The notes below the pieces were generated by a model. It did no database searches. It was not told where the DNA came from and was given only the letters and a program-made list of their open reading frames with translations. From Albugo candida (lineage: Eukaryota), in contig JBDOQK010000003.1 in assembly GCA_040437565.1 (NCBI GenBank), positions 496,001-560,000 on the forward strand: a stretch of DNA of 64,000 bases. Direction: 5' to 3'. Made by a program: the position numbers and the translations under genes. Shown one piece after another: positions 5,875-61,589 of the stretch (its first letter is position 1; each line of letters opens with the position of its first letter).

Positions 5875-6106
5875 GGAATTTGGAATCTAAGTGGTTCCCG
5901 TCACCCGCTCCATACTTGAGCAAAGCGCTGCGTTCTTGCTCAGTTGATAATGCATTTTCTCCCCCTTAGTAAAATTTGCCCGAGCTTCTGCTTGTGCACG
6001 CGACCTAACTTATCCGTCTCTTTAAGGCGTGAAACGACCCGAGTAGTGCGCCAATCGTCTTCGCTTGAAAGAACGGCTGGAGCAAGCATTAACGCAAATC
6101 TAAGCA

Positions 6107-28604: not shown

Positions 28605-28776
28605 GTCTCCATACTTAACGAGATGTCGTGCTATAAATGANNNNNNNNNNNNNNNNNNNNNNNNNNNNNNNNNNNNNNNNNNNNNNNNNNNNNNNNNNNN
28701 NNNNNNNNNNNNNNNNNNNNNNNNNNNNNNNNNNNNNNNNGTCTCCATACTTAACGAGATGTCGTGCTATAAATGA
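28605..28776. repeat. 36-bp exact duplication flanking N gap 28641-28740
   Basis: 28605-28640 equals 28741-28776 (GTCTCCATAC...TATAAATGA). Confidence 0.95.
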
Positions 28777-28866: not shown

Positions 28867-31800
28867 ATGAATTTCAGCGAGTTGGAGCACAAATTAAAAA
28901 AATTAGGCATCACAGTTACGACAGGATCACAGGAAACTATAGTTTCAGTCAAAATCGGTGGCTTGGTTGGCAAAAAGCTCGCTCAGGGGATCCAACTTGC
29001 GGATCGATTCTTCGAGGAAAAAGTCAGCAAGATTCTGCATAGGATTTCGGACATAGATCTCTTTGTCGATCCTGCATTTGGCCCAAATCCTAGTGATCAC
29101 AATGGGATCGTTGCGCTCTGTGATCCTGATCAACCGTGTCCAACGAAAGGACTCTTGCAAAATCAGGCAAACGTACGCTCACTTCTCAAATCCGATAAGC
29201 TGAGATGGGAGCGTCCAAAGTACGCTTCACCTGAAGCAGTAGCAGAGTACTGTAAGCATCAACATCGCTCTTGAATTTCTGCTAAACTACTCGCATTATA
29301 GCGATCTGGATCCAGAAGAGGATTCTACTGAATTATCGAACCTCAGATTCGCAAACAACGCGACGCTATTTCGCAATGGTTCGTCGGCTGGTGATGTGAT
29401 ACAGGGCAATCTCGGAGATTGCTGGTTCCTGAGTACGAACTCTTGCTTCAAATAGTATGATTCTACTTAGACGAGGACATTATTTTTTCTCTGCTCAGGT
29501 GCTTTGAGCGTAGTAGCTACCCGATTCGACCTTTTACAGCAGATTTTCTGGCGTGGCGACAAGTTTCGGATGAAAGGCCTATATGTCTGTAGATTTATGA
29601 AGGTACACAACTCTTATGACATGGATCAAATCAGTATTTACAAATATTGATGCGTATAGAATTTTGTATGGCATTATGTCATCATCGATGACCAGATTCC
29701 TGTTTTTGGATACTCAAAGTCAAGAGAAGGAAAACCATATTATGCGCGTTGTCGTGATCGAAATGAAATATGGTATGCACAGCGTGAATGACACATTCGA
29801 ATGAAACTGATATAATAATGCCAGGGTATCTCTTATCGAAAAAGCTTATGCGAAATTACACGGAAGCTATGCAGCACTGATTGGGGGATTTGCTGATGTT
29901 GCACTTGGCGATCTAACCGGAATGTGCTCGGAGCAAGTGGTTTTACGAGATGGGTATCCGGGTTTCGTCAAATATCCTCCGATATCGTCTGATGTTGTAG
30001 CCGGTCGTCCAGACTCATTTTGGGACAAGATTATACGATACAAGAATTCTGGGAGTCTATTGGGATGCTCCATTCAGCCGAATATCTCGCGGAGCCCGAA
30101 TGCTGCACCCGAAACGATTGCAGGAAACGGACTTTACTACAAACATGCTTACGCAATAGTGGATGCTGGACTATTTCACTCTGTTAGAGGAGAATCGGTT
30201 CGGCTAATACGGCTTCGAAATCCGTGGGGAATGGGAGAATGGGTAAGTTATATATGAGAAGCCAAAGGTAACCCGCATTGATCCGACTTATCTTCAGACA
30301 GGACCTTGGTCAGATTCCAGCGAAGAGCGTATCCTCAACCAGGATTTATTGAAGAAGTTCTTCAACGTGATCAAGCGAAAGGTTGGCGGAAATTTATACA
30401 AACGGATTTTTCTGCAGCTTGATGGGCGGGGGAATTTGGACATTGAAGAGATTTGTCATGAGGAGGCAGTGGAGCTTGATCCTTGCGATGGAACTTTTTT
30501 CATGTCTTTCGAAGCTTGGTCGGAGTACTTTACACATTTTTTCGCTGGAGTTGGTACGAAGTATTGATCCGAGTCGAGAATATTGACCCAACTGACCAAA
30601 ATCATCTGTGATGCTGTAGACTTTCCTGACGAATGGTCCGGTCGTCGTGTTCAAGGATGCTGGAGCGAGATGAGTTGCGGTGGAAATCATCAAACAAGTA
30701 CCTGGAATAGAAATCCACGATATGATTTCTCGCTTCGCAAAAAAAGTCATGTCTTTATATCGCTTTGTCAAGAAGATCCACGAGGAAAAAGAGATTTGAA
30801 GCTCGTTCCAATAGCTTTTCATGTCTGTTCTTCAACAAAGGAAAAAGATGGTATACCGTGGACTGAGCATCCAAAGCCAAACAGGGATAATGCTCATCGC
30901 AGTCGATCTATACAGGAAAACTATAAAATAGTGTATCAGACGGGTACGGCAGACTACTCTGTGCCACCTGCGGTGATTCCAGGAACCGTTATACAAGGGG
31001 TGAATAGTTATGGAACCCCGCAGCCTGCATATGTCTACAAGCAAAATGTGTCCGTAGAGACAGAAATGCTACCGGGAAACTATTGTATCGTGCCAAGCGT
31101 TTACATGCGCATGGTAAGTTATGAGTGATGGCGGCAAGAGTAGATTAATCGAATCATTTTTTAGTGTCAAGAAACTGGAAAGATAAATGCCGGTAATTTC
31201 TGGATATCGGTCTATTGCGATGATCCTGGCTTTGAACTCGAAGAAGGGTACACAATCGCAGAAGAAGAAGAACGTGGAACGACCGAAAAGAGTGAGATAC
31301 GAAAGGGGACAATTTTGGTCTGTGATCTAGGAACATGTGGAATGAAGCCAGCGTTTTCGGCAACTAAAGCTACGTCTTCGAATTTATCTATCAGCAACTC
31401 AAGAAAGATTACGAACGCAATAAATGATGCAGGGAGACTTATCTTGAACGAAGCTCGATCGAAGGGTATACGACCACAAGACATAAAACGAGAGTTTGGC
31501 AAGGCAAAGACTTTGAAGAGAGAAGCCTGCAGGAGAAAGTTCAAGGCTTTGGGACTCATTCCAAATGGCGTACCTGAAGCAACAATTGATCGTTTTTTCG
31601 GTGATCTGGATGTGTCACCCCCTGCCGGAGTAGTATCCTACGAGAAGCTGCATCAAACTTTCGTGGTAGAGCTTAAGGAAGATGAACTTCTTGATGACAC
31701 ACCCGATCTCGAAACCGAAACGCTTGGAGAAAGACTCTACCAGGACGGAATCCTGACTGTAGAAATACATTCCGCCAAAGATCTGCTCGTGAGTTCTCAG

Positions 31801-34800
31801 CATGAAAGGACATTTCGGGGACAGAGTTGTGTCCCAACCACCAACATTGCTTATCATCCTGAAGAAGCAGCTGCTCGTGCCGAGATAGTCAAGTGCATAA
31901 TCAGTGCCAATCCTCAGCTGAAGATACTGCTGAAACCGCTTTTGGTGGCTAACGGATGGTGCTCCGAAAGTTTGTTGGCTGAGTACAATATGAATTCCCG
32001 CATTCATACAAGAAGCCCGAGATATACGAAAGACGAAGGTAATCCTGTTTCAAAGCTCTACAAGCTATTGAATGCTCAGTATGAGCTCGATAAATTGGAA
32101 AAACAGAATTTAAACAAAGCTCAAGATGACTATTCAAGCGATCTCGAATATGATATGGAAGTGGTGGAGAAACAATTGCAGGCAGACTCGAAGGAAGCGC
32201 GTGTAAATCACAATGAAAGGTGGAATTCAATACACGTATCAAATCGCTTAATAAAAATGGAAGAGAAGCGTAGTGAGAGATTCAAAACCTTACAAAAGCG
32301 GCGCCGATCGCTTTTGGGAGACAGAAAAAAGATGATGACGCTTCCACGACTTATAGGAGGAAATCTAGGCGAACTTGATTCTCCAACTTGCATCGATTGC
32401 AATTGTCAACTCACAACAGAATCACCAAGTTGCTCTGGAACGAATTGCACCAATAGGTTCTGCTCAGCTTGCCTGGCTCTTTTACCTCCTGATCGTCCAT
32501 TGTGCGACGATTGCTTTCTGAATGAAAGCGTTGACATGCCGACTTTGGGTACTGAAGTACGTTCTTTACTTTTCAACAAACTTTGTCACAGCGATAATAG
32601 TGTGGAAAGATTGGAAGTGCTTTTCAGATCATTTGATTACGATAAATCAGGTGGAATAACTTACGATGAGTTCTCTAATACTTTGAGTGAGTTATTATTA
32701 CCCCCGTTGACTGATGCTCAGACAGGGAACATCTTCCAGCAATTCGACACCAACGCTGATGGCAATATAGATGGGGAGGAGTTTAGAAAATGGATCCTGG
32801 GGGATCAAGTTTGGTCACCTACAGTGGAAGAACAAATGCTCGAACACATCACCGATGGTAGTGATACTGATGAGGTGACAAACTCGATTATTGAAGCTTT
32901 GATCGCACGTGCGTTTGAGGCCATGATGCTTGCAACAACATCAACCGAGTATACAATAATTGAGTCTAGCCCCACCAGAGCTGATCAGAATATCATCTTG
33001 AACTCTCAGTTTTCGCGAGTAGATAATATTCTCTCATCAAAACAACTCGTCTTTTTGAGAGTTGTGAGTTTTCATAAGCACTCATTCAGCAAGAAGAAAA
33101 AGTCTTTAGGATTACAGGCTGCAGTTTTACAGAATGAATATGCACAGCCGGAGGCAACCAAAGGAGAATGCTGGAAGAGCACACATCTGATCGACAAAAT
33201 GATTAAGCTAAAGCAGCATTATAGTAAGATTGCGAGCAGCAGCTGCCGATCGAGACTGGATATCCTAATCATGGACCTAAGAAAAGGATTGAGTGATAAC
33301 GAGAAGAGCGCATGGGCTAACAAGCTTCATACATTAAGCGGTATTTGTTTTGACACACGAGATATGCAGCGGATGATAAGTTTACTTGAAAATGCACTTC
33401 CACGCCCCCAATTTGACGAACACCTCAGCTCAAAGCAGACTTCCATCACAGATGATGACCAGAAGGATCATTTTTTGGATTTTTTATATGAGCCTGGTGA
33501 CTTACTTGCTCGCTACCTAATTGATGAAACAACACAAACTCCGGACATTTTGGAAATCGCAAAAGGAAACACAATCTTTCACGAGTTATCTTTGTTCTTC
33601 AAGCATGTTGACAGTTTTGCTGATTGTCAGTCTATCTGGAAATATGTATTTGGCCTTGAACGAGACCAAGGTATAGAACAACGTCTCTTTATTGATACAA
33701 TCACCAAGCAAGGATTCCACATATCAGCGGAAAGCCATGATGTCACTGCTTTAAAACACAAAGATCACTTGTCAAGTATAACAACAAGATTGATTATAGC
33801 TTTTGCCATTGACAGGATTTCAGCGGAGCGAGACGATGGGAATATGACTGATGAAAGGCCGAAATCGCGTTTAGATTTTTTAGTGTTTACCGACATGATT
33901 CAAACTTTCGATACTGAAGCCGAGGATTCAACCCACAATGCGCTTTTAAAACGTCCTTGTTCCGATGAAGGATTTGAAACATTTCTGGTGGCAATTGAGC
34001 TGGCCAAAGGCTCAGGTAAAGGAATTATGGAAAATCACTTGAGCATTTGTATTATCGATCCCATGCTGAAACTTGAAATGCGGTTAGCAATTACGAGTGG
34101 CGATGGTATAACTAACATTGTATCGTTTCTCGAGGATTCCATCTGTATGCATGGTGGACTCATCACACAGTCTACAAGTCGACAATTAGATTCATATTTG
34201 TGTGCATTATTGCACCGACTATCACTCCAACCATTCGAAAGAAAACTTAGCTCAAACCCATGGAAGACACCTTTGTATCGCCTTACAATGGATGAGAAGA
34301 AAACGTTCGTTGACATCCTCCAAAGTCTTCTTGTAGAGGCTGACCCACCATTTTTCTGGTCCCTTACAGCTCAGTTTTTGACTTTCTTCATCCCCCATGA
34401 TTCTCTGGTACAAGATGAACCCAGAGCATCACCTTTTCATCGATTTGTTGTCGATTCATTAGCCACTTCGACAAAGTCCACAGCACTTCTTTTGTTTCTG
34501 AGAACTTCTCTTTCTTCATTACGAGTTTGTTTCCAGCTTGTAGGAACTTCTTCTGATACTTTTACGTGTTCGTGGAGCGACTTTCAAAATCAACTCATTG
34601 GTAACCACGATTTTTACGCAACGATACAATTACATCCACACGGACAGCTGCATCGAACTCAAGTTTATCATTCAGATAATGCAAATGCAATCTGGAATAG
34701 CAAATGTACAATGATAATTCAGCAACCCGAGGTTGCCACTGAGCGCATTGACATGCCGATAGTTTATTCAGACACAATACGAATCTCAGCAGCCCCAAGT

Positions 34801-36738
34801 CAAACGCATACTGAGAATATATCTTTTTTGCGTTCTGAGGACGTAGAAACGGGATATTATCTCATTGTGCACGTTCGAAAGGCTATCCCGCTGAAACGAG
34901 GAGAAGAAAGCCGATTATACTGCACTGCATATGATCCTACAACTTCAAGCGATTATGCAGTAACAGGATATCCTGAAGATTGGCCTGTGAATTTTTTTGA
35001 TCCAAACGAAAATCCTGATTTTGAAGAATCTTGGCGAGCAATGATTTTAGGCCTGGAGCTGGATGTCCCGCTCACACCTCAACTGATTTGTAAGGTTTAT
35101 AATCGGCAGAAAAAAACAGAGACTTTACTTGGAGAGCGTCGAATTTCGGCTGCATCAGCGCTATCTCGGGAAGGTTTTCTTGTAGAAGAATGCTTCACTT
35201 TAATACATCCCAAAAACGAAAAGCTTTCAGTTGGAATGGTCAATCTCTCGTTCCGCTTCGATTTGAATGAAAACGAAGTTGCAACCATACGATCAGATAC
35301 ACTGCCCATCGTTCCAGAAAAGGTTGCCGAGAATGAAGTTGAGGATTTCAGCTCTCAAATCATAAAGACGAAACCAAAATCTAGCGATTGGCCTCGCGTA
35401 CATACAGACCGGTGCTTGGAGGAGCTAGAAAATGAATTAATTGTTGCCGAAAACGCCAAAGAAAACGCGATCCGTGATGCCGATGCTTTACGATTGCAAC
35501 TGCAAAGCTTGCAAAGGTTTGAAGAAAAGGGTATTACTAGGGCCACGAGATGGAAAGAGAAACATGAAGAAACTCGGAAAAAGCTACAGTCGATGCAGCA
35601 AGAATATGAAGAACGGTAGTGCTCAGCTCAGGCTCTTTAGTTCGGATTCTTATCTTACAAAGTGCTTTGCTGTCGACAGAATATATACTCTCCAGCAGCA
35701 GGTTGAGGCATACAAGGATGTCGATGATACACAACAACAAAGAAGAAATAGAATCGAGGACGTCAAACAAGAGACGGCCAAAGAAGATATTGGAAGGAAT
35801 CTACTCATGCTGATAAGAGACACACTTTATCGTCGATGTCAAGATCGCCCATTCAATGGCTTGAAGAAAGCCTTCACGGCAGTGACAGAATCACCAGGGA
35901 AGGTACATTATACCCAACTAAGAGGGGATAGTCACTGACTGTTTCTTTTATCAAGATTTCGTTGGATGCATTCCACGAAGTTCTTAGCGACTTTGGCTTC
36001 CAATTCACGGAGACTGAACAATCAGAACTGACAACACTTCTGAAACCCGACTCGCGAGATCGAATTAATATTGAAGGTTTGATTCTGAAGATTGTTTTTA
36101 TTCGCAGTCGGTGTCATCGATGAAAATTTTGCAGAGTTTTTCATCAGACTGAATGGAAGTAATGGAAAATCTGCGATTCCTGAAGTACATGAATCAAATA
36201 GAAATAAAAGCATGAAGCTTGACTGGGTTGACGAACCAATGGTGGAAAAACCCAGTAAAACAGCATATGCGCAAGAGAGCAAAACCAGTCTCGAAGAGAG
36301 TCTTGACTATGGCTTGCGAGACAGACGTTCTAGCATCAATCAGGTACGATGATACGTTGAAAAACTAAAATCTTCTTCTGATGAGTCGACTTGTTCAAGC
36401 CTACTAGAAGATCTCAAATTTCAGACAGAATAGCGACCAAACCATTCGGTTCACGCAAATCGCAAGCTCGATCGTGGAAAGAGTTCAAACAAATGATGAT
36501 ATTACGCTTACCCGATGGCTGGGATATGCGAATCAGTGACAAAGGGCGTCCTTACTTCTGTGATCATCTCAACAGGTGTTCTTATTAATCGCTGCAGCTT
36601 TTGAAAACTTTCTTATTGTCTCTGCGCCTCTATTTCAGATCAACGCAATGGAGTCATCCTCGACCGGAAGTCGATTCGGAATATCGAAAATGGCTCGACA
36701 CAACAAAGTTCAACTTTCTCAACGCAACAGATGGGTGA
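28867..36738 (+). CDS. Giant calpain-family cysteine protease with domain III, EF-hands, C2-like segments, Cys-rich finger, coiled coil and WW domain
   Basis: FVDPAFGP; QGNLGDCWFL (about 29402); EKAYAKLHGSY; HAYAIV; RLRNPWG; GGNHQTSTWNRNPRY; EF-hands DYDKSGGITYDE and DTNADGNIDGEE; WW LPDGWDMRISDKGRPYFCDHLN|RSTQWSHP. Successive ORFs are joined by short GT-AG introns. Confidence 0.85.
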
Positions 36739-37065
36739 GTCATTACATAAATGGAATTATCAAGAAGTGATGATGTTCGTAACTTTATACTCGGAGACTT
36801 GTCGAAGGAAAGTTCTAAACGTGTGCCCGTTGTGGTGGCTAGAATATTAAGTGAATCAGCATGCTTATGAAAATAACGATAAATTCGCAATGCTCAAGAG
36901 TTCTGTTCACGTTTTATCGGCGTGCTCAAAATAGAACGCATAAAGAGACTTGATAGTCTCTGATCTCCAGCGAGGTGATTTGCCAGTGCAATGTGAAACT
37001 GGGCGAGACCTATTGCAGAAAAGTACATTAAGCTAGAGTCTCCTGAGTCGAGAATAATCAAATTC

Positions 37066-40000
37066 ATGCAGGTAGAAGAGAATACTGAGGGCGATCGATC
37101 GCCAAGACAAGACGAGAGAATTGTTTTGAAGCTTCTTGAAGACATGCGAGATTTTTTGGGATTTACTGAAAAGACTTTACCACCCGCAGATGCATCATTG
37201 CTGGATCCAAGACGTGCAAAGATTGCATCGAAGCTGTACATAGATACTCGAGACACGTATGATGTTGTTGAAAATGTTGACAGTGACAATGAGCTTGCTC
37301 GACGAAGAGCTCTATTAAAACAACGACGTAGTGCAGATTCCAGCATATCAATTGATTCAGATACACATGATGACGAATCTTTACCTCAAGGTGCATCAGT
37401 AGCGGACAGTATCCAGTTTTGGTTCAAGTGGCTGGGTGGAGTTCTCTCCATCCCAATAAGAGAGGAGCTGTTAGAGCGGAACTTATCGATGGATGGCATC
37501 ATGCATTACGTCAGATACTTTTCATTATTGGATCAATGGATAGTTTACAAAAAAGCTCGGATAATGCATGTCGAGACAAGTTACTGTGATAAGGACTGTG
37601 CGAGATCGTCCATTGAATCTATAGACTCGAGCTTATCATTTGTAACAGCGCTTACTCGACATGCCGAATTTATAAAATACGAAATGAAGAAAGATATAGA
37701 CACCATTTGTGTATTTGCTCGAACGGGAACTTTCTCAACGATCTTTGGAAGCGACGACGTTCGCACCCACGATATCGACATCACAACAAAGTTTGAATCC
37801 TTAATGGAAGAAGTATACGCTGTTTATTTGCAGCGTATTATAGACTCCCAAATAAACGCGTTGACACAATTGGCATTAAAATGGCAAGAAGACCAATTAC
37901 TGCACCAAGAAGCGCTAACATATGCGGCAGCACAAGCTGTATCGTTGGGAACTAAAATTACTTCATTTGCAGCACTTACGAGTGAGACGTATTTTTTCCA
38001 GCGGAAACGAAAATTTGATATGAAAAGAGACATTTTTCCAGATGCCATTTACGACTGGCCTCCTCGTTTCACTCCAGCAATGGCGCCAGGAGGTCAAACC
38101 TTGATTGCCCACCCACGTCATGTTGGGATATGGTGGCAGACCACGGTGCTTTCGGTAACAGAGCAAGATATATCTATATTGCATCACGATGAGGTACTGG
38201 GAATTCTCAATCATATCGAGTCGCTTCATGGTCACATCTACGTCCCAGAAGTTGAGAGTAATCAGAGCTTCTTCCGACGGTGTGGTGTCCGAATTGGCTC
38301 TTTTAGTAAATGGGAAGGCCAACGCATGCTTCTGAACAATGGAAAAGACTCGTTATGGATTGAGGTAGTTGTTACCGAAGTCGAAGACAAAAAATGCAAG
38401 GTGGAATTGAAACCTGGTCTTGAGGATCTTTCTGTTGCAGAAAAGTGGAAAGCATACCTAGTGGAGAATACGTGGCTTCATATTCGAGATTTCCGTTGGA
38501 ATGCTGTACCAAAAAATTCTGATTTTCGCATTCACATCGGACTCAAATTCCGAAAACTTTTGGAGGAGATACAAACAACTGTCATCGGAATCAGCTGTGT
38601 TTTTCCTGATCGGAATCTAGAGCGACAGGTACAGACTGCTACATGGCGATCATTAGAAAATATTGCTAGCAAAGAAGAACATCTTTATTCGCGATACTTG
38701 CGTGCAGTACTTCAGGATAATGAATCATCAACCATTGTGGCAGATGCCTCTCAGTTCACGAGTAAGACCAGGAACGTCCCTGGCAACAGGTTTGGTAGAA
38801 AACTTTCTATGCTCAGAGGAAAAGCTATTGAATATGATGGGGCGTCTGAAAAAGCACCAAGAAATGACTCACGAATTTTAAATGATATTACGATGAAGCC
38901 GCAACACGTCTCTTACAGTACTCACGGGAATTTTGATATTGATGGCGTGTACCGAGCGCTTCCGGATCAGACCAGTCTTCAGGAACCTCGAACGACTGTA
39001 TTACTTTCATCCTCGTTTGAGAAGCTGACGCACATCCTCTTAGAAGAAACAGAGGTATTATCTGTCTGTATCCAAGCAAACAATACGGCTTTAGCCAGGG
39101 TTTTTGTTGAAGCTTTCGCAGAAAAATTGGAGAAACAAAACAATTTCCTACTAAATCGTTTAGAGAAAAGTACCTTAGAGTACATGCTTTCAGAGGTAAC
39201 AAACGCCTATAGGTTTCTGTATGCATGGAAGATTTGCCGATATGAGCTTGATGAATCCACACGACTAGAGCGCGCGAGGTATGGTCGAAATTCAATGCTG
39301 ATGATTGACAAAGAAAAACAAAAGGTTTCACTTTCCAGCACAAGTCCGTCTGTGGAGGCTGACACATTACAAAGAGATTGGATTGATCGAACATTCGAAC
39401 ACATGGAGGGAATGATTATCGATATGATACGATATTTGACGTATCGACTGCACAATCAGTTCTTTTATGAATGTAGTACGTTTATCTTTCCTAGTATATA
39501 CGGGCAAGAATGGGATGCAATTTCGGCTCGACCACACATCACTAGCACATATGGCATACAATCCTTCCTGTGCCGGATACAAATGATAGTGGAATTTACA
39601 CGTACTGACTTACTGAAAGGATTCGAACATCATCTAGCTGTCCATGAAAAGGTCCAAGATAGACTTATATGGGCGATACTAGAGCCATTATCATGCGTAG
39701 CAGCCTTCTATGAGCAAGTTCAAATATCACGACCAAGAACAAGAGACTGGAAAAGCGATATTTTGTATCTGGTGCTGGGTATGCAAGAAATTGTAGGCAC
39801 ACTGAATAAAATGCTTAGTCAAAATGAGAAAGATTCACGGGCAGGTGTCTGCAAAAACAATGAAGGCTGGGAACTCGTACAAGGAGGGACGCTAAACGAG
39901 ATACATAAAATCTGCTTGCGACTGATTTTATGTATTGCGATTCGAACATCACCGATAAATGCTGTCATTTCTGGCTTAAAATCTCTGCAGAGAGAGGACT

Positions 40001-40453
40001 ATAACGATGAAACGGTGCGGGGAACATCAATTGACACCGCAGCTTTTGAATTTACAAAAAGGCGAGACCTCATGGGCATTTTAAAGCGATTGCTACGGTC
40101 TCTTCATCCAAGTAATAATACCTGGAAGGCGATCGTCAAAATCTCGTTTCGTTCTCTTCCTTGGGACACAAACACGAATACTCGTACAGAATTCCACTCT
40201 CATTTACAAAGTGCTTGCGTGGATGTAAGTTGACTTTCGTGACGTAGAACTATTATCACCCATTCTGTCCTGTAGTGGGAAATGATTATAAAGCAGCGAC
40301 TACGAGTTCCACGAGATTTTGCATTGGAACAATTACAGAGGCGACATGAGCTGGAAGACACTGTTCGTCTTTCTTTGTGCCCAGCTGAGATTGAAGATGG
40401 AAGAATTTTACGAGAAGTAAGTGGGTTGTTGAGCTTCGCCGTAGCTCAATCGC
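37066..40453 (+). CDS. Large helical hypothetical protein, possibly KIAA0825/DUF4495-like
   Basis: 1055-aa ORF plus intron near 40225-40275 and a further exon (WEMIIKQRLR...LQRRHEL). The family resemblance is weak (YEQVQISRPRTRDWKSDILYL) and the 3' end is approximate. Confidence 0.65.
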
Positions 40454-40871
40454 ACTTTAAGCTTTCTGTCTGATTTGTTAGTTCATAAATGAAGTGCTGG
40501 CCGCACAAAGTAGCGACACAATTCAGTAAAAGGATATGTGGAGAAAATCAAGCCGCACAGTATCGTGAAATACTGAATAGCAAGATACATACAAAAGCGG
40601 TGCAAACCCAAAGATTCGATACCATTGTCATTGATGGAGGTCGTTGTCGATCCACATGGATGTAGGTAGCCAGCTTGAGTATATTTTGAGCGACGTCGAC
40701 CTTGTAACTATCGTAAAATAAATAATAGAATTTGGGACTCTGCTGAAATGGACTAAAAATAGGCAAAGATTACAAAGTGATCCCTGTGGCGTACACCATG
40801 CCAAATCGGACACTCTTATATCTCTTCACTTTGTAGTATATCCACTTCCAAGTGTGGTCGGGAGATTTACA

Positions 40872-43800
40872 ATGGTACTTATAATGCGTTTCCTCGGTAG
40901 GTGTTCTGCATTTTCCAGCACATCGTTCTCTAAGTAATGGATTTCTGAAGGAGGTATTTTTGCTGCGACGTTATTCTCTTATACCGTGGCTACCTGGACA
41001 CAATTATGGAGTCACCGTCAGGCAGCCGCGTACCCTGACAAACGAACAGCACATGCGATGATCATCTATCAGGATGCTTTGTATGTATATGGCGGTCTGG
41101 GTGAGAACTTAGCTGGAGATGACTATGAGCATGAGGATTCTTGGAAGGTGAGCCGTTCAAGTCTCATTTCGCCTCCCTCGGTTCCTTAAAGTTCGTGTTC
41201 TAGTTCGATCTAAAGCAAAATCGATGGACGAAGTTAGTCGAAGAAAATGACATGAAACCTCCACACAGGTTTCATCATACTGCAGTAAGTTGGACAGCAC
41301 CGAGCCGAAAGTAATACACACGACCAACATGCTGCTTGATTTAGGCTTTATACTCGGATGACATAACAAGCCAAATGATAATTTTTGGTGGACTCTCTCT
41401 TTCAACAAATGCTAATGCACAAACAAAACAGTCATCAATGCTGCAAATTACAGAGTATAATGATATTTGGCGTTTATCCTTATCTTCTGGTAAGGTGGTG
41501 TGGAGTAAAGACGCAACTAGCAATCATGCTATCAACGACACTGAAGTTCCATCTCCGCGGTCAGAAGCAGGGTCTATCATTCATGACAACAAGCTTTATA
41601 TTTTTGGAGGCATTTCATATCGATCTAGTGGCTTAGACTCTCCAGTAGACATGAATGATCTATGGAGCTACGATCTTGAGACAAAGACATGGATAGAGAT
41701 CCGACCGGTTGATGGCATCGTCCCGTCTCGGAGATTTTCTCATTCAGTCACTCTTGTAAAGCATAGTGGTTTATCGTACTTATTAGTCTACAGTGGTCGG
41801 CATCTACAGCAGTCAACCTGGAGTGCGCTGGACGATACATGGCTTTATTCAATTTCCGAGAAGCGTTGGATCAAAGTTCAATCTTCTAGTTCGATTCCGC
41901 GTATGTATACATCCATCATCACGACAGGAGATAAGAATTTTTGGTTTTTCGGGGGATACTATCGCCCTCTGCATACCATGAGTGGGTACGTGTTCGATGA
42001 CACTGTCAGTGGAGAGCTCAATATCAATTCGGGGTCCGCTTCAGATTCTTCGATCACGGCAACGCCAGTCACGAAAGGGGTCAGTATGAAGCTTTATACC
42101 GCAGTTGGTGGCATAAACAGCGCAATACCACCATTACGCTACAATCATCAGGCAGTTGTGTGGAATGAAGCCATTGTGGTATATGGAGGAAGCTATCAAA
42201 CAGTGCGTGGAGACGTATGGAGTTACAATACAACTCTTGCGGTTCTCTCGCAAGATGTGAACATGTTTTCGAAAAAAATCACGTCGCTTATCTACATTCT
42301 TGGAGGTCTCATCGCGGTAATTGTTGTCATCTTGTTACTATTACTATTGCGATGGCGACAAGTCGACCAACGCAATGTGAGAACCTTCTGCTCATCGGCT
42401 CGTTCCAAATCCTTAATTCTGTTTCGTTATAGCTNNNNNNNNNNNNNNNNNNNNNNNNNNNNNNNNNNNNNNNNNNNNNNNNNNNNNNNNNNNNNNNNNN
42501 NNNNNNNNNNNNNNNNNNNNNNNNNNNNNNNNNNCGTGGCTACCTGGACACAATTATGGAGTCACCGTCAGGCAGCCGCGTACCCTGACAAACGAACAGC
42601 ACATGCGATGATCATCTATCAGGATGCTTTGTATGTATATGGCGGTCTGGGTGAGAACTTAGCTGGAGATGACTATGAGCATGAGGATTCTTGGAAGGTG
42701 AGCCGTTCAAGTCTCATTTCGCCTCCCTCGGTTCCTTAAAGTTCGTGTTCTAGTTCGATCTAAAGCAAAATCGATGGACGAAGTTAGTCGAAGAAAATGA
42801 CATGAAACCTCCACACAGGTTTCATCATACTGCAGTAAGTTGGACAGCACCGAGCCGAAAGTAATACACACGACCAACATGCTGCTTGATTTAGGCTTTA
42901 TACTCGGATGACATAACAAGCCAAATGATAATTTTTGGTGGACTCTCTCTTTCAACAAATGCTAATGCACAAACAAAACAGTCATCAATGCTGCAAATTA
43001 CAGAGTATAATGATATTTGGCGTTTATCCTTATCTTCTGGTAAGGTGGTGTGGAGTAAAGACGCAACTAGCAATCATGCTATCAACGACACTGAAGTTCC
43101 ATCTCCGCGGTCAGAAGCAGGGTCTATCATTCATGACAACAAGCTTTATATTTTTGGAGGCATTTCATATCGATCTAGTGGCTTAGACTCTCCAGTAGAC
43201 ATGAATGATCTATGGAGCTACGATCTTGAGACAAAGACATGGATAGAGATCCGACCGGTTGATGGCATCGTCCCGTCTCGGAGATTTTCTCATTCAGTCA
43301 CTCTTGTAAAGCATAGTGGTTTATCGTACTTATTAGTCTACAGTGGTCGGCATCTACAGCAGTCAACCTGGAGTGCGCTGGACGATACATGGCTTTATTC
43401 AATTTCCGAGAAGCGTTGGATCAAAGTTCAATCTTCTAGTTCGATTCCGCGTATGTATACATCCATCATCACGACAGGAGATAAGAATTTTTGGTTTTTC
43501 GGGGGATACTATCGCCCTCTGCATACCATGAGTGGGTACGTGTTCGATGACACTGTCAGTGGAGAGCTCAATATCAATTCGGGGTCCGCTTCAGATTCTT
43601 CGATCACGGCAACGCCAGTCACGAAAGGGGTCAGTATGAAGCTTTATACCGCAGTTGGTGGCATAAACAGCGCAATACCACCATTACGCTACAATCATCA
43701 GGCAGTTGTGTGGAATGAAGCCATTGTGGTATATGGAGGAAGCTATCAAACAGTGCGTGGAGACGTATGGAGTTACAATACAACTCTTGCGGTTCTCTCG

Positions 43801-44640
43801 CAAGATGTGAACATGTTTTCGAAAAAAATCACGTCGCTTATCTACATTCTTGGAGGTCTCATCGCGGTAATTGTTGTCATCTTGTTACTATTACTATTGC
43901 GATGGCGACAAGTCGACCAACGCAATGTGAGAACCTTCTGCTCATCGGCTCGTTCCAAATCCTTAATTCTGTTTCGTTATAGCTACAGATGAGGCAGCTT
44001 CATGGTCCCAATACTCGTGGAGTTTCGCAGGAAAAACTGCAACAACTTGAGATACTCAAGTATCAGAAGCCGGTCAAAAGCGTGAATTCCGCGAGCGAAT
44101 GCGCCAAGAATGTGCCAAGCTCAAATCGTACTGGTCTGGATGAAATACCGATCTGCTTGAACCTTGACGAAGATGTGTGCCCTATATGCTTGGTAATGCA
44201 TTCGATTAGCTTATCACTCTGCTTCGCTTCTTATCAAAATTATTTCAGGTCGAGTTTGAGGAAGAGGAAAATATTCGGAAACTTCACTGCACACACATTT
44301 TCCATGTCCCTTGTATTGACGAATGGCTTCGACGAAATGTGGTAAGTCTGGGTGCTAGTAGGAGTTTGTTCCATATTTTCTCATGTTTCACCTCTAGACA
44401 TGTCCAATGTGCAAAGATATTGTCGAGGTTGCGACCGGACAGGAGCAACATCCTGCGAATGGTTCATCCCGACGATTTAGTGTTACCCCATTGCTGAATC
44501 CGCGTATTTCCTCACAATCTTCAATAGTTCCCGTCGCACCCGAGAGAAGTGCAGCAGTGCAAATAATTAGCAATGCGGTCATTAGCCCAATGGAAGTAAG
44601 GTTGGCGCCACGAACAATAGTGGAGGCACCAGACACATGA
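40872..44640 (+). CDS. Signal peptide-Kelch repeat-TM-RING-H2 protein (interrupted by an assembly duplication)
   Basis: Exon 40872-40896 plus 40951 onward gives MVLIMRFLGGIFAATLFSYTVA. Kelch repeats (YVYGG, IIFGG, YIFGG, VYSG, FFGG, VYGG); TM LIYILGGLIAVIVVILLLLLL-RWR; spliced RING CPICL|VEF...CTHIFHVPCIDEWL...|TCPMCK. Confidence 0.85.
40985..43984. repeat. 1450-bp duplication flanking N gap 42435-42534
   Basis: 40985-42434 matches 42535-43984 (offset 1550; ORF translations identical). Confidence 0.95.
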
Positions 44641-44693
44641 GTTTGTAAAAGATAGCGAGTTATTTATCTATATCAGCTTTATTCAAGTTGCCT

Positions 44694-45641
44694 TTACTTT
44701 CCCATTTTCTCTTCTTTCAATTGTTGAATGAGCTTTCTCAAGTCGATTTTCTCCTTCTCCGTAGCATGTCCGGCAGCCCTGTCGACAGACATTCCACAGC
44801 GAGAAACAAAATTAGTATATTCATTTCAACAAACTTTTATAGTAAAGGAAGGCCTACATCCATCGGATCCGTCCTTTGTCGTCAATCAGATGAGCATAGC
44901 AGACGAAACTGTTGTACATTTCCATCAAAGTTCTGAAGTTATCTCGCCAACCAAACGCGTAATAAGAGTTCGCGTGAAAGGCTTCTGGTATGTGAGTCTT
45001 CAGACCTTTCACAATCGCAGATTTGAATATTTTAAAGTACCATTCTTCGATGATGGACAAATGTATAACCAGAACTACAGGTAATAATATAGCGACTTGG
45101 AGGATGAATGACCATTGCCTACAGATAACCATTCTGGTGACATTTGCAATCCCGAATTTTTGAAATTGGTCAGCAGGATAGTAATTTTTCCATTCTTCAA
45201 CACTTTCTGCAAATCACATTCTTCATGAAGGAGACTCCTACATTTGAATTCAGGAAAGAATGTAGCGTTGGCGACTGGAAGAAGAGTGGAGGACCCATGT
45301 AGGATCTACAGAATGACAGATATTCAGTTCGAGTAATTATGCCCACCGATTGATAATACCTTTCCATCATTATCGTTGTAAACTTTCATTTCGCCGAACA
45401 TGTCGGGTCGATACTTCTTGATTTCATGCTCCTGGAGCTGTTCGATTAGTGCGTTGTTGACTTTAGCCGCACTTTTGATCCTTTTAACGGGTGACAGCTG
45501 CTCCCAAAATGATTTACGTTGGATCTTCGATCCAAAGGATGCTATTATCGGTTGACCCTCGGCCGCTTTACTGGTGAAAGCTCGATATTTTGAGATTTTA
45601 TGAATGATGCGTTGATTCCCGATTGGGTTGCGGTAGCTCAT
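44694..45641 (-). CDS. ATP10: Mitochondrial ATPase assembly factor ATP10 (copy 1, frameshifted near 45085)
   Basis: FFPEFKCRSL, YNSFVCYAHLIDDKGRIRWM|AAGHATEKE fit the ATP10 N...Y.YLVD..GRIRW..SG.A...E motif; basic presequence-like N-terminus. Confidence 0.75.
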
Positions 45642-46014
45642 TTGACTAGGAGCTGGGCGAATTTAAGCCACATTTTACTTAAGTTGATTAATTTCGGATG
45701 TACTTAAGCGTCCGAAAGTGACAGCTGCGTCGCCGCAAACAGTTGTTCGAAAATCAGCTGCTCTTAGACCGTCCGTGTGCTTTATCATAATCGACCCACT
45801 CTAGAAACCGTGTTTTCTCATCCGAGATGATTCGAACGTTAATCAAGCCAATCATATGAGTTTGCTAATGCTTTGAGCAGTTAGTCTCAAAAACCACGGC
45901 GAAAGGCAATAGAAATCAAACTTGTGATTTTTCGAACCGAAGGAAAGCCGATTTTGTAATGAAGTGATCATGACTCTCATAATCCAATATTACAAGTAGT
46001 CACCACTAAAAATT

Positions 46015-46861
46015 ATGAATACGGAATTCAGAAACGATGCTTCAGAGCCTCTTTACAGCCATCCTTTGGTCTGTGTTGACCTACCTACCGAACGATTCCC
46101 TCAATATCCGACCCCGGCTCGAGTAGCTCATCAAATCATTAAGGATGAATTATCGCTGGATGGAAATCCCAAAATGAATGTAAGAACATGATAAACGGTT
46201 TTCTATCAATCGTTATTCAAATTGACTGTGTCTTGAAGCTTGCATCCTTCGTCACCACGTACATGGAACCAGAAGCTGATGACTTGATGGTGGATGGACT
46301 ACGAAAAAATTACATCGATCTTGATCAGTATCCTCAGACAGCCGAGATTCATAATCGCTGTGTCACAATGCTCGCCAATTTATATCACGCTCCTTTGAAA
46401 GACCATGAGAAAGGTACTGGTACCGGGTGTGTCGGATCATCAGAAGCCATCATGCTTGCTGGGCTCGCTATGAAAAGACGCTGGAAAGATCGACGGATTG
46501 CTGCCGGATTACCTTACGATAATCCCAACATGGTTATGGGTTCAAATGTGCAAGTGAGTTGACATGTCATATACATTGGTATGAATTCATTATATTTATC
46601 GGTTTATAGGTTTGCTGGCATAAAATGTGTAAATACTTCGAAATAGAAATACGAGAAGGTGAGCTTATGACCCATTTTCAGTGTACTCCAACAGTTGAGT
46701 TATTCACCCTTGTCAACTTCATAGCGGATGTGTCTGAGGATTGTCTCGTCTTGACCGCCGACCGTGCGCGACCACTTTTGGATGAGAATACCATCGGTGT
46801 ATGTGCGATCCTTGGAAGCACTTTCAATGGTGAGTATGAAGATGTTAAAGCTATCCATGAC
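46015..46861 (+). CDS. GAD: Glutamate decarboxylase, partial duplicate copy truncated by the gap
   Basis: Identical to 47973-48819. Confidence 0.7.
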
Positions 46862-46961
46862 NNNNNNNNNNNNNNNNNNNNNNNNNNNNNNNNNNNNNNN
46901 NNNNNNNNNNNNNNNNNNNNNNNNNNNNNNNNNNNNNNNNNNNNNNNNNNNNNNNNNNNNN

Positions 46962-47599
46962 CCTTTCACAATCGCAGATTTGAATATTTTAAAGTACCAT
47001 TCTTCGATGATGGACAAATGTATAACCTGTACTTCTGGTAATGAATATAGCGACTTGGAGGATGAATGACCATTGCCTACAGATAACCATTCTGGTGACA
47101 TTTGCAATCCCGAATTTTTGAAATTGGTCAGCAGGATAGTAATTTTTCCATTCTTCAACACTTTCTGCAAATCACATTCTTCATGAAGGAGACTCCTACA
47201 TTTGAATTCAGGAAAGAATGTAGCGTTGGCGACTGGAAGAAGAGTGGAGGACCCATGTAGGATCTACAGAATGACAGATATTCAGTTCGAGTAATTATGC
47301 CCACCGATTGATAATACCTTTCCATCATTATCGTTGTAAACTTTCATTTCGCCGAACATGTCGGGTCGATACTTCTTGATTTCATGCTCCTGGAGCTGTT
47401 CGATTAGTGCGTTGTTGACTTTAGCCGCACTTTTGATCCTTTTAACGGGTGACAGCTGCTCCCAAAATGATTTACGTTGGATCTTCGATCCAAAGGATGC
47501 TATTATCGGTTGACCCTCGGCCGCTTTACTGGTGAAAGCTCGATATTTTGAGATTTTATGAATGATGCGTTGATTCCCGATTGGGTTGCGGTAGCTCAT
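46962..47599 (-). CDS. ATP10: ATP10 copy 2 (5' part, open frame, truncated by the gap)
   Basis: Open frame ...SSKSLYSLPEVQVIHLSIIEEWYFKIFKSAIVK up to the Ns. Confidence 0.7.
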
Positions 47600-47972: not shown

Positions 47973-49605
47973 ATGAATACGGAATTCAGAAACGATGCTT
48001 CAGAGCCTCTTTACAGCCATCCTTTGGTCTGTGTTGACCTACCTACCGAACGATTCCCTCAATATCCGACCCCGGCTCGAGTAGCTCATCAAATCATTAA
48101 GGATGAATTATCGCTGGATGGAAATCCCAAAATGAATGTAAGAACATGATAAACGGTTTTCTATCAATCGTTATTCAAATTGACTGTGTCTTGAAGCTTG
48201 CATCCTTCGTCACCACGTACATGGAACCAGAAGCTGATGACTTGATGGTGGATGGACTACGAAAAAATTACATCGATCTTGATCAGTATCCTCAGACAGC
48301 CGAGATTCATAATCGCTGTGTCACAATGCTCGCCAATTTATATCACGCTCCTTTGAAAGACCATGAGAAAGGTACTGGTACCGGGTGTGTCGGATCATCA
48401 GAAGCCATCATGCTTGCTGGGCTCGCTATGAAAAGACGCTGGAAAGATCGACGGATTGCTGCCGGATTACCTTACGATAATCCCAACATGGTTATGGGTT
48501 CAAATGTGCAAGTGAGTTGACATGTCATATACATTGGTATGAATTCATTATATTTATCGGTTTATAGGTTTGCTGGCATAAAATGTGTAAATACTTCGAA
48601 ATAGAAATACGAGAAGGTGAGCTTATGACCCATTTTCAGTGTACTCCAACAGTTGAGTTATTCACCCTTGTCAACTTCATAGCGGATGTGTCTGAGGATT
48701 GTCTCGTCTTGACCGCCGACCGTGCGCGACCACTTTTGGATGAGAATACCATCGGTGTATGTGCGATCCTTGGAAGCACTTTCAATGGTGAGTATGAAGA
48801 TGTTAAAGCTATCCATGACATGGTCATGGAAGTCAATGAGGAAAACGGCTGGGGAATCCCCGTGCACGTGGATGCTGCCAGTGGCGGATTTATCGCACCT
48901 TTTTTAAACCCTGAGTTGGAGTGGGATTTTCGCCTTCCCAACGTCAAGTCCATAAACGTTAGCGGACACAAGTTTGGTTTGGTATATGCTGGCATTGGAT
49001 GGGCATTGTGGCGTGAACCACAAGATTTACCTGCTGACCTCGTTTTTCACGTTAACTATCTTGGTGGAGATCAAGCTTCATTCACTCTAAACTTCAGTAA
49101 AGGAGCCGGAAATGTGGTCGTGCAGTATTACAACATAGTGCGCTTTGGTTATGACGGTTACCGTCGTATCATGCAAGCGTCTATGGACACTGCCTCCTAT
49201 TTACGCCAAGCGCTTCTCGATACTAATCATTTCAGGATCGTGGACAAGCAACACATGCCTTTAGTTGCATTCACTCTCATTGACTCGAATCGCTACACTT
49301 GTTATGACATCCAAAACAAACTTAAATACCGCGGATGGATCGTACCGGCATATACCTGTTCTCGAGGTGCTGAGAACCTGGTTATCATGCGCGTTGTCGT
49401 GAAGCAAAATTTTGCCAACCATATGGCGCACATGCTGGTGGCAGACATACTACGTGCTATCGAGGAGTTGGAGAAGGAGCATGTCGTGATATCTTCTGCC
49501 ACCAAATCTGACGGTATGACGAAGAAACTTCAACAGGCAATGGGTAGCATCGAGCTCGCTTTCCGTGCTAAACGTCACTCTAGCCGCACAGAACGAGCAT
49601 GCTAG
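47973..49605 (+). CDS. GAD: Glutamate decarboxylase (PLP-dependent, plant/bacterial-type), 4 exons
   Basis: [73 protein letters not shown] (PLP lysine), FTLNFSK. Confidence 0.95.
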
Positions 49606-50953
49606 ATGTAAAGTAGCCTCTGTTGTCGATGCGTATCTCACTATATGAACGACTATAATATAGTACGTGTGTTGAGGTGGTCCTTCATTGATTCTACCGT
49701 GAGTCCCATTGATCACGTCTACTGTCTCGGTCCTTGAACCATCTCAGAATTCCCTGGGTCATTCTAACGAATTGATATTTCTCAATCGATTTGCATTTTC
49801 AACTCTATTTATCAAGTTAAGTGAGAACAGCCAGTGAAGCATGCCGGATCTCCACACATTCTTACGAGGAACATTCCCTATTATTGTGACCCATCTGAGA
49901 ACGTCCTACTTTTTACATGCAAATTCCAGCTACCCGCACGCAATCAAATCCTATGCGAGAAATACTTGGAAAGCAAAAGCGTGGACATGACGTAACATGT
50001 TTGCAAGTCTCTCGAGCGCACTACTTATACTTGACCCATACATTCAAAGAGCATATTTTTACTTTCATTATGTAAAGACATGTCGGGCTTACACTTCCTT
50101 GATTAGACGGTACAGAACGAATTTATCCTGTTTTGTGAATATCCATACTTGGAGCAAACTAAATTCTTCGCGCAAAAGCATCATGCAAAAAGCNNNNNNN
50201 NNNNNNNNNNNNNNNNNNNNNNNNNNNNNNNNNNNNNNNNNNNNNNNNNNNNNNNNNNNNNNNNNNNNNNNNNNNNNNNNNNNNNNNNNNNNNCAGGCAA
50301 TGGGTAGCATCGAGCTCGCTTTCCGTGCTAAACGTCACTCTAGCCGCACAGAACGAGCATGCTAGATGTAAAGTAGCCTCTGTTGTCGATGCGTATCTCA
50401 CTATATGAACGACTATAATATAGTACGTGTGTTGAGGTGGTCCTTCATTGATTCTACCGTGAGTCCCATTGATCACGTCTACTGTCTCGGTCCTTGAACC
50501 ATCTCAGAATTCCCTGGGTCATTCTAACGAATTGATATTTCTCAATCGATTTGCATTTTCAACTCTATTTATCAAGTTAAGTGAGAACAGCCAGTGAAGC
50601 ATGCCGGATCTCCACACATTCTTACGAGGAACATTCCCTATTATTGTGACCCATCTGAGAACGTCCTACTTTTTACATGCAAATTCCAGCTACCCGCACG
50701 CAATCAAATCCTATGCGAGAAATACTTGGAAAGCAAAAGCGTGGACATGACGTAACATGTTTGCAAGTCTCTCGAGCGCACTACTTATACTTGACCCATA
50801 CATTCAAAGAGCATATTTTTACTTTCATTATGTAAAGACATGTCGGGCTTACACTTCCTTGATTAGACGGTACAGAACGAATTTATCCTGTTTTGTGAAT
50901 ATCCATACTTGGAGCAAACTAAATTCTTCGCGCAAAAGCATCATGCAAAAAGC
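49534..50953. repeat. 660-bp duplication flanking N gap 50194-50293
   Basis: 49534-50193 matches 50294-50953 (offset 760). Confidence 0.95.
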
Positions 50954-56489: not shown

Positions 56490-58275
56490 ATGGGGGGCAT
56501 ATTCATCGACCCTGCCGCCTTACCGCAGAATGGATACGGCCTATTTCAGGTGCTTTTCCTTGGCGCTGTCTATGGGTTTGTTCTTTTCAATGCCAGTAAT
56601 ATGATATCGAATGGCAGTGAGCTATTACTATTAGTGCCCTGTACGCTAAGAATAGCAATGTCTATTAATCACATACATGCACCTTTTTTTACTTTCTCAT
56701 GAATTTGTAGCGCTCGCAGGAATCGTTGGAAGCATCGTGCTTCCCGTGCTCGGAGCTGTTCCAGACGGGATGATCGTTTTATTTTCTGGTATGGGCCCAA
56801 ATGCGCAAGAACAGCTATCAGTGGGTGTTGGAGCCCTGGCCGGATCTACAATCATGCTGCTAACAATCCCTTGGGCTATAAGTGTGTACGCTGGCCGGGT
56901 CAATTTGGATGAACATGGTCGTGGAAGGTACAAACGACCTAAAAATGCACCTGCAGATTGGAATAAACTGAATCCTCCAAACAACAAACACATTTGGAAA
57001 ACAGGTGTCGTGCTGCTGGACGAAATACAAATGAATGCGAAGACTATGGTTTTTACCAGTTTGATCTATCTTGTTTTGCAAATTCCCGCATTTCAATACA
57101 CCGGGACCCATCAACGAGATGCACAAGCTGATACATCTGTGGTTACCGTCGCGGAACGTCCTTATGCATTCGTGACACTATGTGTCTGTGTGATAGCATT
57201 CGGCATGTACATGTACTGGAATGTCCAACGATCTTCTACCTCCCAAGTTGCAAGCGACATCAAAGGCGAGGTAGCTGTTGAGGCCATTCGGCATGATAGA
57301 GCTAGCTTATCAGGAATTTTAGCAGCTGAAGCTTCAAAACTAAGCGACCGCATGCCCTCTGAAAGGTCCCCAATCAACGCTAGAGCTCATGATACTGCAC
57401 TCGAAGACATTATGCGACCCTTCTTTGCAAAGTATGACAAAAATCACGACAAGAAGATGGACATCAATGAGTTGCAACTATTTTTCATGGACATGAATGA
57501 ACAGCTGACGCGGGAAGAATTGGAGACATGGTTGTTCATGGCCGATAAAGATCAAAGTGGGTTTATTGAATTCAGCGAACTGGTCGAAGCGACTAAGAAG
57601 TACCTTGTGGCAAAGTACAAGGGTGAGCAAGCTGGCAAGAAGACACAGATGAAGCACATACATTTCAATGACATTGAAACCTCCGTATACCCCAGTAACC
57701 CAGGAAATGTTGATCATGAGGAGTCTGACGATGAAGAAGAAGAGGAAGTTCCCCAAGATCTAGCCCATCTGTCCATCCATGATCAACAGCGCAGGATCAA
57801 ATTGCGTTCAGCGTATCTCATGCTTCTCGGAACAATCCTTGTCTTGATCTTTTCTGATCCAATGGTGGATGTTTTATCGGAGATTGGAGCTCGTACAGGC
57901 ATTCCCGCATTTTATGTCTCATTTGTTATCGCTCCGCTGGCTTCCAATTCCAGTGAGCTGATTGCCGCCTACAACTATGCGACAAAGAAAACCTCCAGAA
58001 GCGTATCGATTTCTATCTCTGCTTTACTCGGAGCGGCTTGTTTAAACAACACGTTCTGTCTGGGCATCTTTGCCGCTTTGATGTTTTTCAAAAATGGCGG
58101 ATTGATATGGAAGTTTTCAGCAGAGACATGTGCTATCCTATTTGTTGAATTGTGCATGGGTGTCATGGCTATGCGGAAGACGCAGCGATTGGTGGATGCG
58201 ATGTGTGTGCTTTGCTTGTATCCAGCCTAAATTGCCTTGGTGATACTTTTGCAAAATGGTTTTGATTTGGACTAA
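56490..58275 (+). CDS. Na+/Ca2+ exchanger with central EF-hands (EFCAX/NCL-like); in-frame TAA at 58228
   Basis: Intron 56641-56710; LPVLGAVPDGMIVLFSG, GALAGSTIMLLT, EF-hands DKNHDKKMDINE and DKDQSGFIEFSE, FSDPMVDV, APLASNSSEL, CLNNTFCLGIF. Confidence 0.9.
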
Positions 58276-61385: not shown

Positions 61386-61589
61386 GTTCAGCGCACAAAT
61401 ATTATTCTTCAAACAAAGGTATCGGTCAGCTCAGAGAAAAATGATTTCTCTCGTCGCTTCGAATGTTCGGTAATACTACGCTTCTTATCAGCCGCGAAGA
61501 AAACTCTTTACTCGTCGCCAGATCCACCACACTCTTACATCAGGATACGAACGATCGTTAAAGATAGAAAGAGCTATATTTGATCTATT

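Follow-up and report, generated by a model that had tools for sequence, protein, structure and literature searches.

A seven-exon Albugo gene for a predicted Kelch-TM-RING membrane protein, a candidate receptor-type E3 ubiquitin ligase of an apparently unstudied protist family

Described membrane-spanning RING ligases and the Albugo locus

E3 ubiquitin ligases of the receptor type are, according to PMC12458338, poorly understood and uncertain in number. That paper describes membrane-spanning E3s as type I proteins that clear receptors off the cell surface and whose RING hangs from a helix continuous with the transmembrane (TM) segment; it presents ZNRF3, ATRN-MGRN1 and MMM as cases of this TM-helix-RING design, and an arginine after the last RING cysteine as a linchpin. 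We describe here a gene from a 64,000-nt stretch of Albugo candida DNA (contig JBDOQK010000003.1, positions 496,001 to 560,000), the whole of which we call the window. Its product is predicted to consist, in this order, of a signal peptide, a six-bladed Kelch propeller, one TM helix that runs on into a cytosolic helix, a GLD-like motif and a RING-H2 domain.

The ectodomains of attractin and MEGF8 carry Kelch propellers, which fits the Pfam name of PF24981 (Attractin/LZTR1 propeller), and also CUB, PSI and EGF modules; Pfam finds none of these three modules in the window protein. The MEGF8 papers searched do not contain the word Kelch. The MEGF8-MOSMO-MGRN1 and attractin-MGRN1 systems resemble the window protein in being type I, in having a propeller-containing ectodomain and in suspending the RING from a TM-continuous helix. 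They differ in the placing of the RING: in those systems a cytoplasmic MASRPFA motif recruits the separate MGRN1 (10.1101/2020.05.25.113944), whereas here the RING is on the same chain, the MASRPFA motif is absent from the translation and there is no MGRN1 substrate-binding domain. In a tree in the same paper, MGRN1 is present as a separate protein in Phytophthora, Aphanomyces and Saprolegnia. A fusion of attractin with MGRN1 was rejected on these three grounds (no motif, no substrate-binding domain, a separate MGRN1 in oomycetes). The preliminary description of this DNA had proposed a single-chain equivalent of attractin or MEGF8 plus MGRN1. The single chain stands, and the relation is one of analogy only, because the cytosolic half is like the RNF13/ZNRF3/ATL module and not like MGRN1; we therefore see in the protein a known chassis that carries a new ectodomain. 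PMC12458338 reports that SMO can be ubiquitylated without the MEGF8 ectodomain, so this analogy does not imply that the propeller chooses the substrate.

The PA-TM-RING proteins (RNF13, RNF128/GRAIL, RNF167) and RNF43/ZNRF3 are closer in organisation: signal peptide (predicted here), lumenal or extracellular domain, one TM segment, basic juxtamembrane helix and RING-H2, all on one chain. The PA domain defines the PA-TM-RING family (PMC4021871). The window protein has the single TM followed by RING-H2 that is typical of this family, but Pfam finds no PF02225 in it and a fold search gives a Kelch propeller: its ectodomain, of about 375 residues, is six-bladed, and proteins of this kind occur in stramenopiles and a haptophyte. 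Plant ATL proteins share the TM segment, the GLD-like motif and a RING-H2 with [I/V]DxWL and RxLP-type features (RKLH in the window protein), but their canonical RING has 42 residues against 41 here, and they are described as having no other recognisable domain (PMC3161093), whereas this protein has a large ectodomain. We rejected ATL membership on RING length and on the presence of the propeller. The nearest solved propeller folds are those of LZTR1 and KLHDC2, KLHDC3 and KLHDC10, Kelch receptors of cullin ligases that all serve ubiquitination. They are cytosolic and need a cullin scaffold, unlike the propeller described here, which is predicted to lie across the membrane from its own RING.

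Gene structure and a segment repeated across an assembly gap

The window DNA has about 42% GC and is eukaryotic and intron-bearing. The Kelch-TM-RING gene is a real gene of an Albugo-like oomycete, with seven exons and a product of 626 aa. Its frame runs from the ATG at 40872 to the TGA at 44640 and is kept open by the removal of six GT-AG introns of 54-60 nt each. The features of the locus are as follows.

40872..40896, plus strand: exon 1, open frame with putative splice, carrying the start codon and the beginning of the predicted signal peptide
40897..40950, plus strand: putative intron 1, 54 nt, GTAGGT..AG, with an in-frame stop inside
40951..41147, plus strand: exon 2, remainder of the predicted signal peptide (ending near residue 22, 40991), then WTQLW, the first strand of the propeller, and Kelch blade 1 (Pfam Kelch match, E 4e-6)
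41148..41203, plus strand: intron 2, 56 nt; second copy at 42698-42753, spliced in X1 and X2
41204..41284, plus strand: exon 3, Kelch blade 1/2 segment
41285..41344, plus strand: intron 3, 60 nt; second copy at 42835-42894, spliced in X1 and X2
41345..42376, plus strand: exon 4, Kelch blades 2-6 (ending near 42232; PF24681, E 1.5e-31), short stalk, TM helix and basic RWR
42290..42358, plus strand: single TM helix (residues 417-436) and RWR stop-transfer; second copy at 43840-43908
42377-42432, equal to 43927..43982 in the second copy, plus strand: intron 4, 56 nt, lying between the Kelch-TM exon and the exons for the cytosolic part; spliced out in X1 and X2
42435..42534, no strand: scaffold gap of 100 N
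42535..43984, plus strand: exact 1450-nt duplicate of 40985-42434, a perfect overlap across the gap
43983..44192, plus strand: exon 5, juxtamembrane helix, GLD-like motif (44019-44063), linker and first RING ligands CPICL (from 44178)
44193-44248, plus strand: intron 5, spliced in X1 and X2
44249..44341, plus strand: exon 6, RING-H2 core (zf-RING_2, E 4.8e-8)
44342-44397, plus strand: intron 6, spliced in X1 and X2
44398..44640, plus strand: exon 7, the final RING ligands CPMCK (to 44415), a tail that is probably disordered, and the stop

Introns 2-6 are missing at the exact predicted sites from a single contig of X1, and likewise from one of X2 (contigs compared over 42535-44900), while run X10 has the same stretch unspliced. 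X1 and X2 are two samples from one study, and we guess them to be RNA, no run being on record as such; with X10 unspliced, it is difficult to account for five clean intron skips except by RNA splicing. The spliced contigs link the Kelch exons, the TM segment and the RING-H2 in one molecule, which bears out the earlier claims that the RING is split over three exons (5-7) and that these are spliced to the Kelch-TM exon. In run X4, 16 of 30 bins were covered and no splice joint was seen.

We infer the position of intron 1, the junction within the signal peptide, from the reading frame. Ten stop-free routes lead from an ATG in 40600-40990 to the conserved first propeller strand, and all ten need an intron ending at 40950 or 40953. 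The best donor is the GTAGGT at 40897. The signal peptide thus requires an intron, as first proposed, but the acceptor at 40953 is as open as the one at 40950. The X1 and X2 contigs extend 167 and 210 nt further 5', by length alone enough to reach the ATG.

The gene is interrupted by a 100-N gap, and positions 40985-42434 recur after it letter for letter at 42535-43984 (1450 nt, zero mismatches, introns included). Exons 2-4 are thus present twice in the assembly, which on its face suggests a true tandem partial duplication; fused gene models among the homologues (P0004, P0006) could likewise suggest that gene modelling created the multi-domain protein. We consider either explanation very improbable. 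The two copies are 100% identical even in their introns and flank an N gap, four of the six gaps in the window are alike in having a perfect flanking overlap (one other has a partial overlap and one has none), and the stretch matches as one single piece a 14,859-nt contig of X10, a near-identical run that may be related to the source of the assembly. These three observations led us to reject a true duplication, and the layout of the protein is the same in the spliced contig and in about 40 homologues. The second copy is most likely an unmerged contig overlap, in which case 1550 of the 3769 nt belong to the assembly overlap and the real gene measures about 2.2 kb. Apart from the duplicate, the gene is single-copy in the genome, the four further matches there being weak Kelch ones. 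Wherever else this assembly seems to contain a tandem duplication, an artefact should be suspected. The repeats that flank the other gaps lie in 28605-28776, 49534-50953 and 60191-65846 (running beyond the window end), where 36, 660 and 2778 nt respectively are perfect, and in 45005-46991, where the repeat at the gap at 46862 is partial.

Upstream lies a DUF4495-like gene (36997-40233), whose orthologue is fused to the Kelch-TM-RING gene in a gene model of Pythium insidiosum (P0004, E 5e-97); its tail also seems to be present in P0006. These fusions indicate that the gene order is conserved, and they look like annotation errors. We rejected such a fusion here: a stop codon and a 640-nt spacer separate the two genes, and the fused models elsewhere skip the signal peptide. 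Downstream there is a convergent ATP10-like gene (PF05176, 44690-45213, minus strand) with a spliced minus-strand intron near 44778-44856; one X1 contig spans it together with the Kelch-TM-RING gene, which suggests overlapping 3' ends. Elsewhere in the window, Pfam identifies an EF-hand/C2 protein (31165-35619), a pyridoxal-dependent decarboxylase (48568-49605), an EF-hand Na/Ca exchanger (56656-58230), a putative mannosyltransferase (59805-61430) and a WD40 protein (6104-8926); the 677-aa frame at 23016-25049 has no Pfam match.

Predicted fold, topology and cytosolic module

The window protein starts with about 22 modestly hydrophobic residues. Six Kelch GG-type motifs (residues 55, 115, 188, 250, 303 and 381) agree with the six blades first estimated, and the propeller contains zero cysteines. 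The single TM segment with a basic stop-transfer is also as first described: residues 417-436, with a 19-residue Kyte-Doolittle (KD) mean of 3.23, are followed by RWR. A C3H2C3 RING-H2 occupies residues 511-551. PF24681 scores above PF24981 in Pfam (E 1.5e-31 and E 2e-24), an order that does not settle the descent of the propeller. Exon 5 taken alone has no Pfam or PDB match.

The fold and topology of the protein are predicted, the fold from a model of its Pythium oligandrum orthologue P0024. AlphaFold with 76 sequences gave a pLDDT of 86.5 and a pTM of 0.73; with 16 sequences the RING had a pLDDT under 50, and the larger run resolved it. The P0024 model has a propeller, a continuous helix (408-446) made up of the TM segment and about 15 cytosolic residues, a GLD-like motif folded as a short helix and a strand, an ordered RING and a C-terminal tail with pLDDT under 50. 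Compared with solved folds, its propeller is nearest to LZTR1 (Z 40.4, rmsd 2.0 over 309 residues) and KLHDC3 (Z 39.5).

The cytosolic part bears out the suggested likeness to ligases of the RNF43/GRAIL type. The TM-to-RING part of the family profile (409-559) aligns to ZNRF3 (8xfp_C, 224-367), and the cytosolic module aligns to RNF13 (38% over 89 columns). The RING also matches Arkadia and AT5G66160 (7bvw, E 8e-14), the latter of which we take to be an RMR-type protein. Among members picked by a RING pattern, on which these figures are conditioned, the zinc ligands, the tryptophan after the sixth ligand and the K/R after the last cysteine are present in 53/53, and the ligand spacing is 2-14-1-2-2-10-2 in 48/53, with a first loop of 15 in two. 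A loose regular expression finds the GLD-like motif in 49 of 52 members (residues 458-472 in the window protein). In the propeller, every blade has an arginine, conserved at 78-100% in 36 distant members. An arginine per blade is a general trait of this Kelch class, and it thus only hints at an acidic ligand.

The topology check first suggested for this protein gives evidence on both sides. In 52 of 53 proteins (52 family members and the window protein), the RING side of the TM segment carries more positive charge, with one tie, although the bias of the window protein itself is weak (+2 on the RING side vs +1). Signal-like N-termini, as judged by a crude heuristic, occur in 25 of the 36 members with plausibly whole N-termini, as against 48 of 348 internal windows; the N-terminus of the window protein scores 2.09, a value that depends on the putative intron 1. 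An earlier control of RING-less, TM-less Kelch matches, 28/42 of which were also signal-positive, was unusable because many of those proteins look secreted themselves, and internal windows took its place. The ectodomain shows no enrichment of N-glycosylation sequons (9.1 vs 7.9 per 1000 aa).

Oomycete-like entries, many of them partial or genomic predictions, divide into 12/28 with and 16/28 without a signal-like start, and none of the eight named Phytophthora/Plasmopara models has one. These (P0025-P0028, P0032, P0033, P0040, P0041) share a conserved Met-rich, non-hydrophobic start, which a missed first exon and a real loss of the signal peptide would both explain. If the signal peptide did not work, at least in Phytophthora and downy mildews, the propeller would be an ordinary cytosolic Kelch substrate adaptor held by a membrane anchor, and either the RING would be misplaced or the hydrophobic helix would be re-entrant. 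That the nearest solved folds are cytosolic Kelch adaptors, and that intron 1 is putative, would suit such an arrangement, yet we find it improbable. Pythium-like predictions diverge 8-14 residues before the first strand, at the site of intron 1 in the window, which makes a missed first exon plausible; the charge bias and the signal-like N-termini of most members point to a propeller outside the cytosol, and the zinc-binding and E2-binding residues of the RING are kept. Moreover, a fully hydrophobic 20-residue helix stands between propeller and RING, so one of the two must leave the cytosol.

Distribution, proposed function and significance of the family

We found homologues in Phytophthora, Plasmopara, Pythium, Globisporangium, Nothophytophthora, Lagenidium and Albugo; the window protein groups with AlNc14C9G1164 of Albugo laibachii (83% over 455 columns). 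The preliminary description had asked for a search for this architecture across eukaryotes. A profile search of 1.84 billion cluster representatives (50%-identity clusters) gave 236 matches at E up to 1e-30. Among the best 150 of the 236, 55 have at least three Kelch-type motifs and a RING, and in 52 of those a TM segment lies upstream of the RING; two of these belong to the query set, and at least one further protein (P0094) escaped the pattern. Organisms were found for 7 of 30 entries looked up: Aphanomyces stellatus (2), A. invadans, Cantina marsupialis (2), Chattonella subsalsa and the haptophyte Scyphosphaera apsteinii. A Pfam scan of ten family proteins returned Kelch and RING in all ten. 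The ESM Atlas holds two Kelch+RING clusters, one mostly of Oomycota (67 members) and one mostly of diatoms (58 members), assigned by Kelch+RING and not by TM. Judged by these sequences, Kelch-TM-RING proteins form a wide protist family that is not peculiar to this genome.

The family diverges fast (about 25% identity) and includes a distant clade with invariant ectodomain cysteines that could pair. Its alignment to the oomycete profile stays collinear across 528 columns (probability 100), which favours one family over repeated fusions. The FastTree tree, with an unresolved backbone, long branches and no outgroup, allows no conclusion about origin or transfer. When metagenomes were scanned with the oomycete alignment, none of 198 candidate stretches held a locus. 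With the distant clade as query, 80 were kept, of which one (L003) holds a full-length locus and the others match the TM/RING part only. PfaD-type enoyl reductases are present in the PUFA synthases of some protists; in L003 (38-1495 and 2303-4222), an intronless distant family member adjoins such a region (TIGR02814). In the models P0002 (Lagenidium) and P0054 (Aphanomyces), two or three Kelch-TM-RING units follow one another in tandem, probably because paralogues that are neighbours were merged.

We propose, with a probability of about 0.62, that the protein is a single-chain type I membrane E3 ubiquitin ligase that tags membrane proteins for turnover, its propeller selecting or sensing. By analogy with the described ligases, a cleaved signal peptide would send the propeller to the secretory lumen or the cell exterior, and the TM helix, continued as a cytosolic helix, would with the GLD-like motif hold the RING-H2 under the membrane. 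The RING would recruit E2~ubiquitin and tag neighbouring membrane proteins (receptors, transporters), leading to their endocytosis and lysosomal or vacuolar turnover. The propeller may bind a substrate ectodomain, a co-receptor or a ligand, and thus select or gate ubiquitination. It is from this analogy that we infer the ligase activity, the substrates, the role of the propeller and its cell surface or endomembrane location, and so the coupling of extracellular recognition to ubiquitination.

The protein could instead be an endomembrane cargo or quality-control receptor without a signalling role, its propeller binding luminal cargo or misfolded proteins and its RING mainly ubiquitinating the receptor itself or its complex on the way to the vacuole. 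Plant RMR PA-TM-RING proteins and fungal Tul1 are precedents. The matches of the RING to AT5G66160 and to RNF13, described as endosomal in reference titles in PMC4021871, suit this role, and so does a gene that is single-copy in this genome and kept across oomycetes, as a housekeeping gene would be. The fast divergence, the several divergent copies in Aphanomyces and Cantina and the tandem units in the Lagenidium and Aphanomyces models fit varied ligands, and we think a cargo receptor possible but unlikely.

As to novelty, we found no description of the Kelch+TM+RING layout in full-text searches of mainly non-subscription papers, judged mostly by titles and the openings of abstracts. The Kelch+RING pair may be included in surveys of domain architecture in oomycete genomes. 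For Plasmopara halstedii, a database label names both domains; labels are otherwise only 'RING-type domain-containing', 'Ras GEF F' or 'mutarotase', and the family is thus easily overlooked. The suggestion of an undescribed system accordingly holds for the literature covered, but the TM-RING chassis is known and the family is wide beyond this genome. What is new is the Kelch ectodomain on that chassis, in a family that is apparently unstudied.

The single-chain ligase proposed here might belong to a class of ligand-gated receptor ubiquitin ligases that is old among protists and has gone unrecognised, in which an outside ligand bound to the propeller, with its conserved arginine in each of six blades, would switch the RING via the continuous TM helix. 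We regard this as speculative and rather doubtful. If true, it would amount to receptor-kinase-like signalling by ubiquitination that arose apart from animal RNF43/ZNRF3 and MEGF8-MGRN1, in oomycetes, other stramenopiles including algae, and haptophytes. The cited examples of receptor-type E3s are from animals or plants, and a Kelch version would extend the design to other eukaryotic supergroups. Being compact and single-chain, it would offer a simple model for the control of a RING by an ectodomain across the membrane, and a handle on the turnover of surface receptors and transporters in oomycetes and algae.
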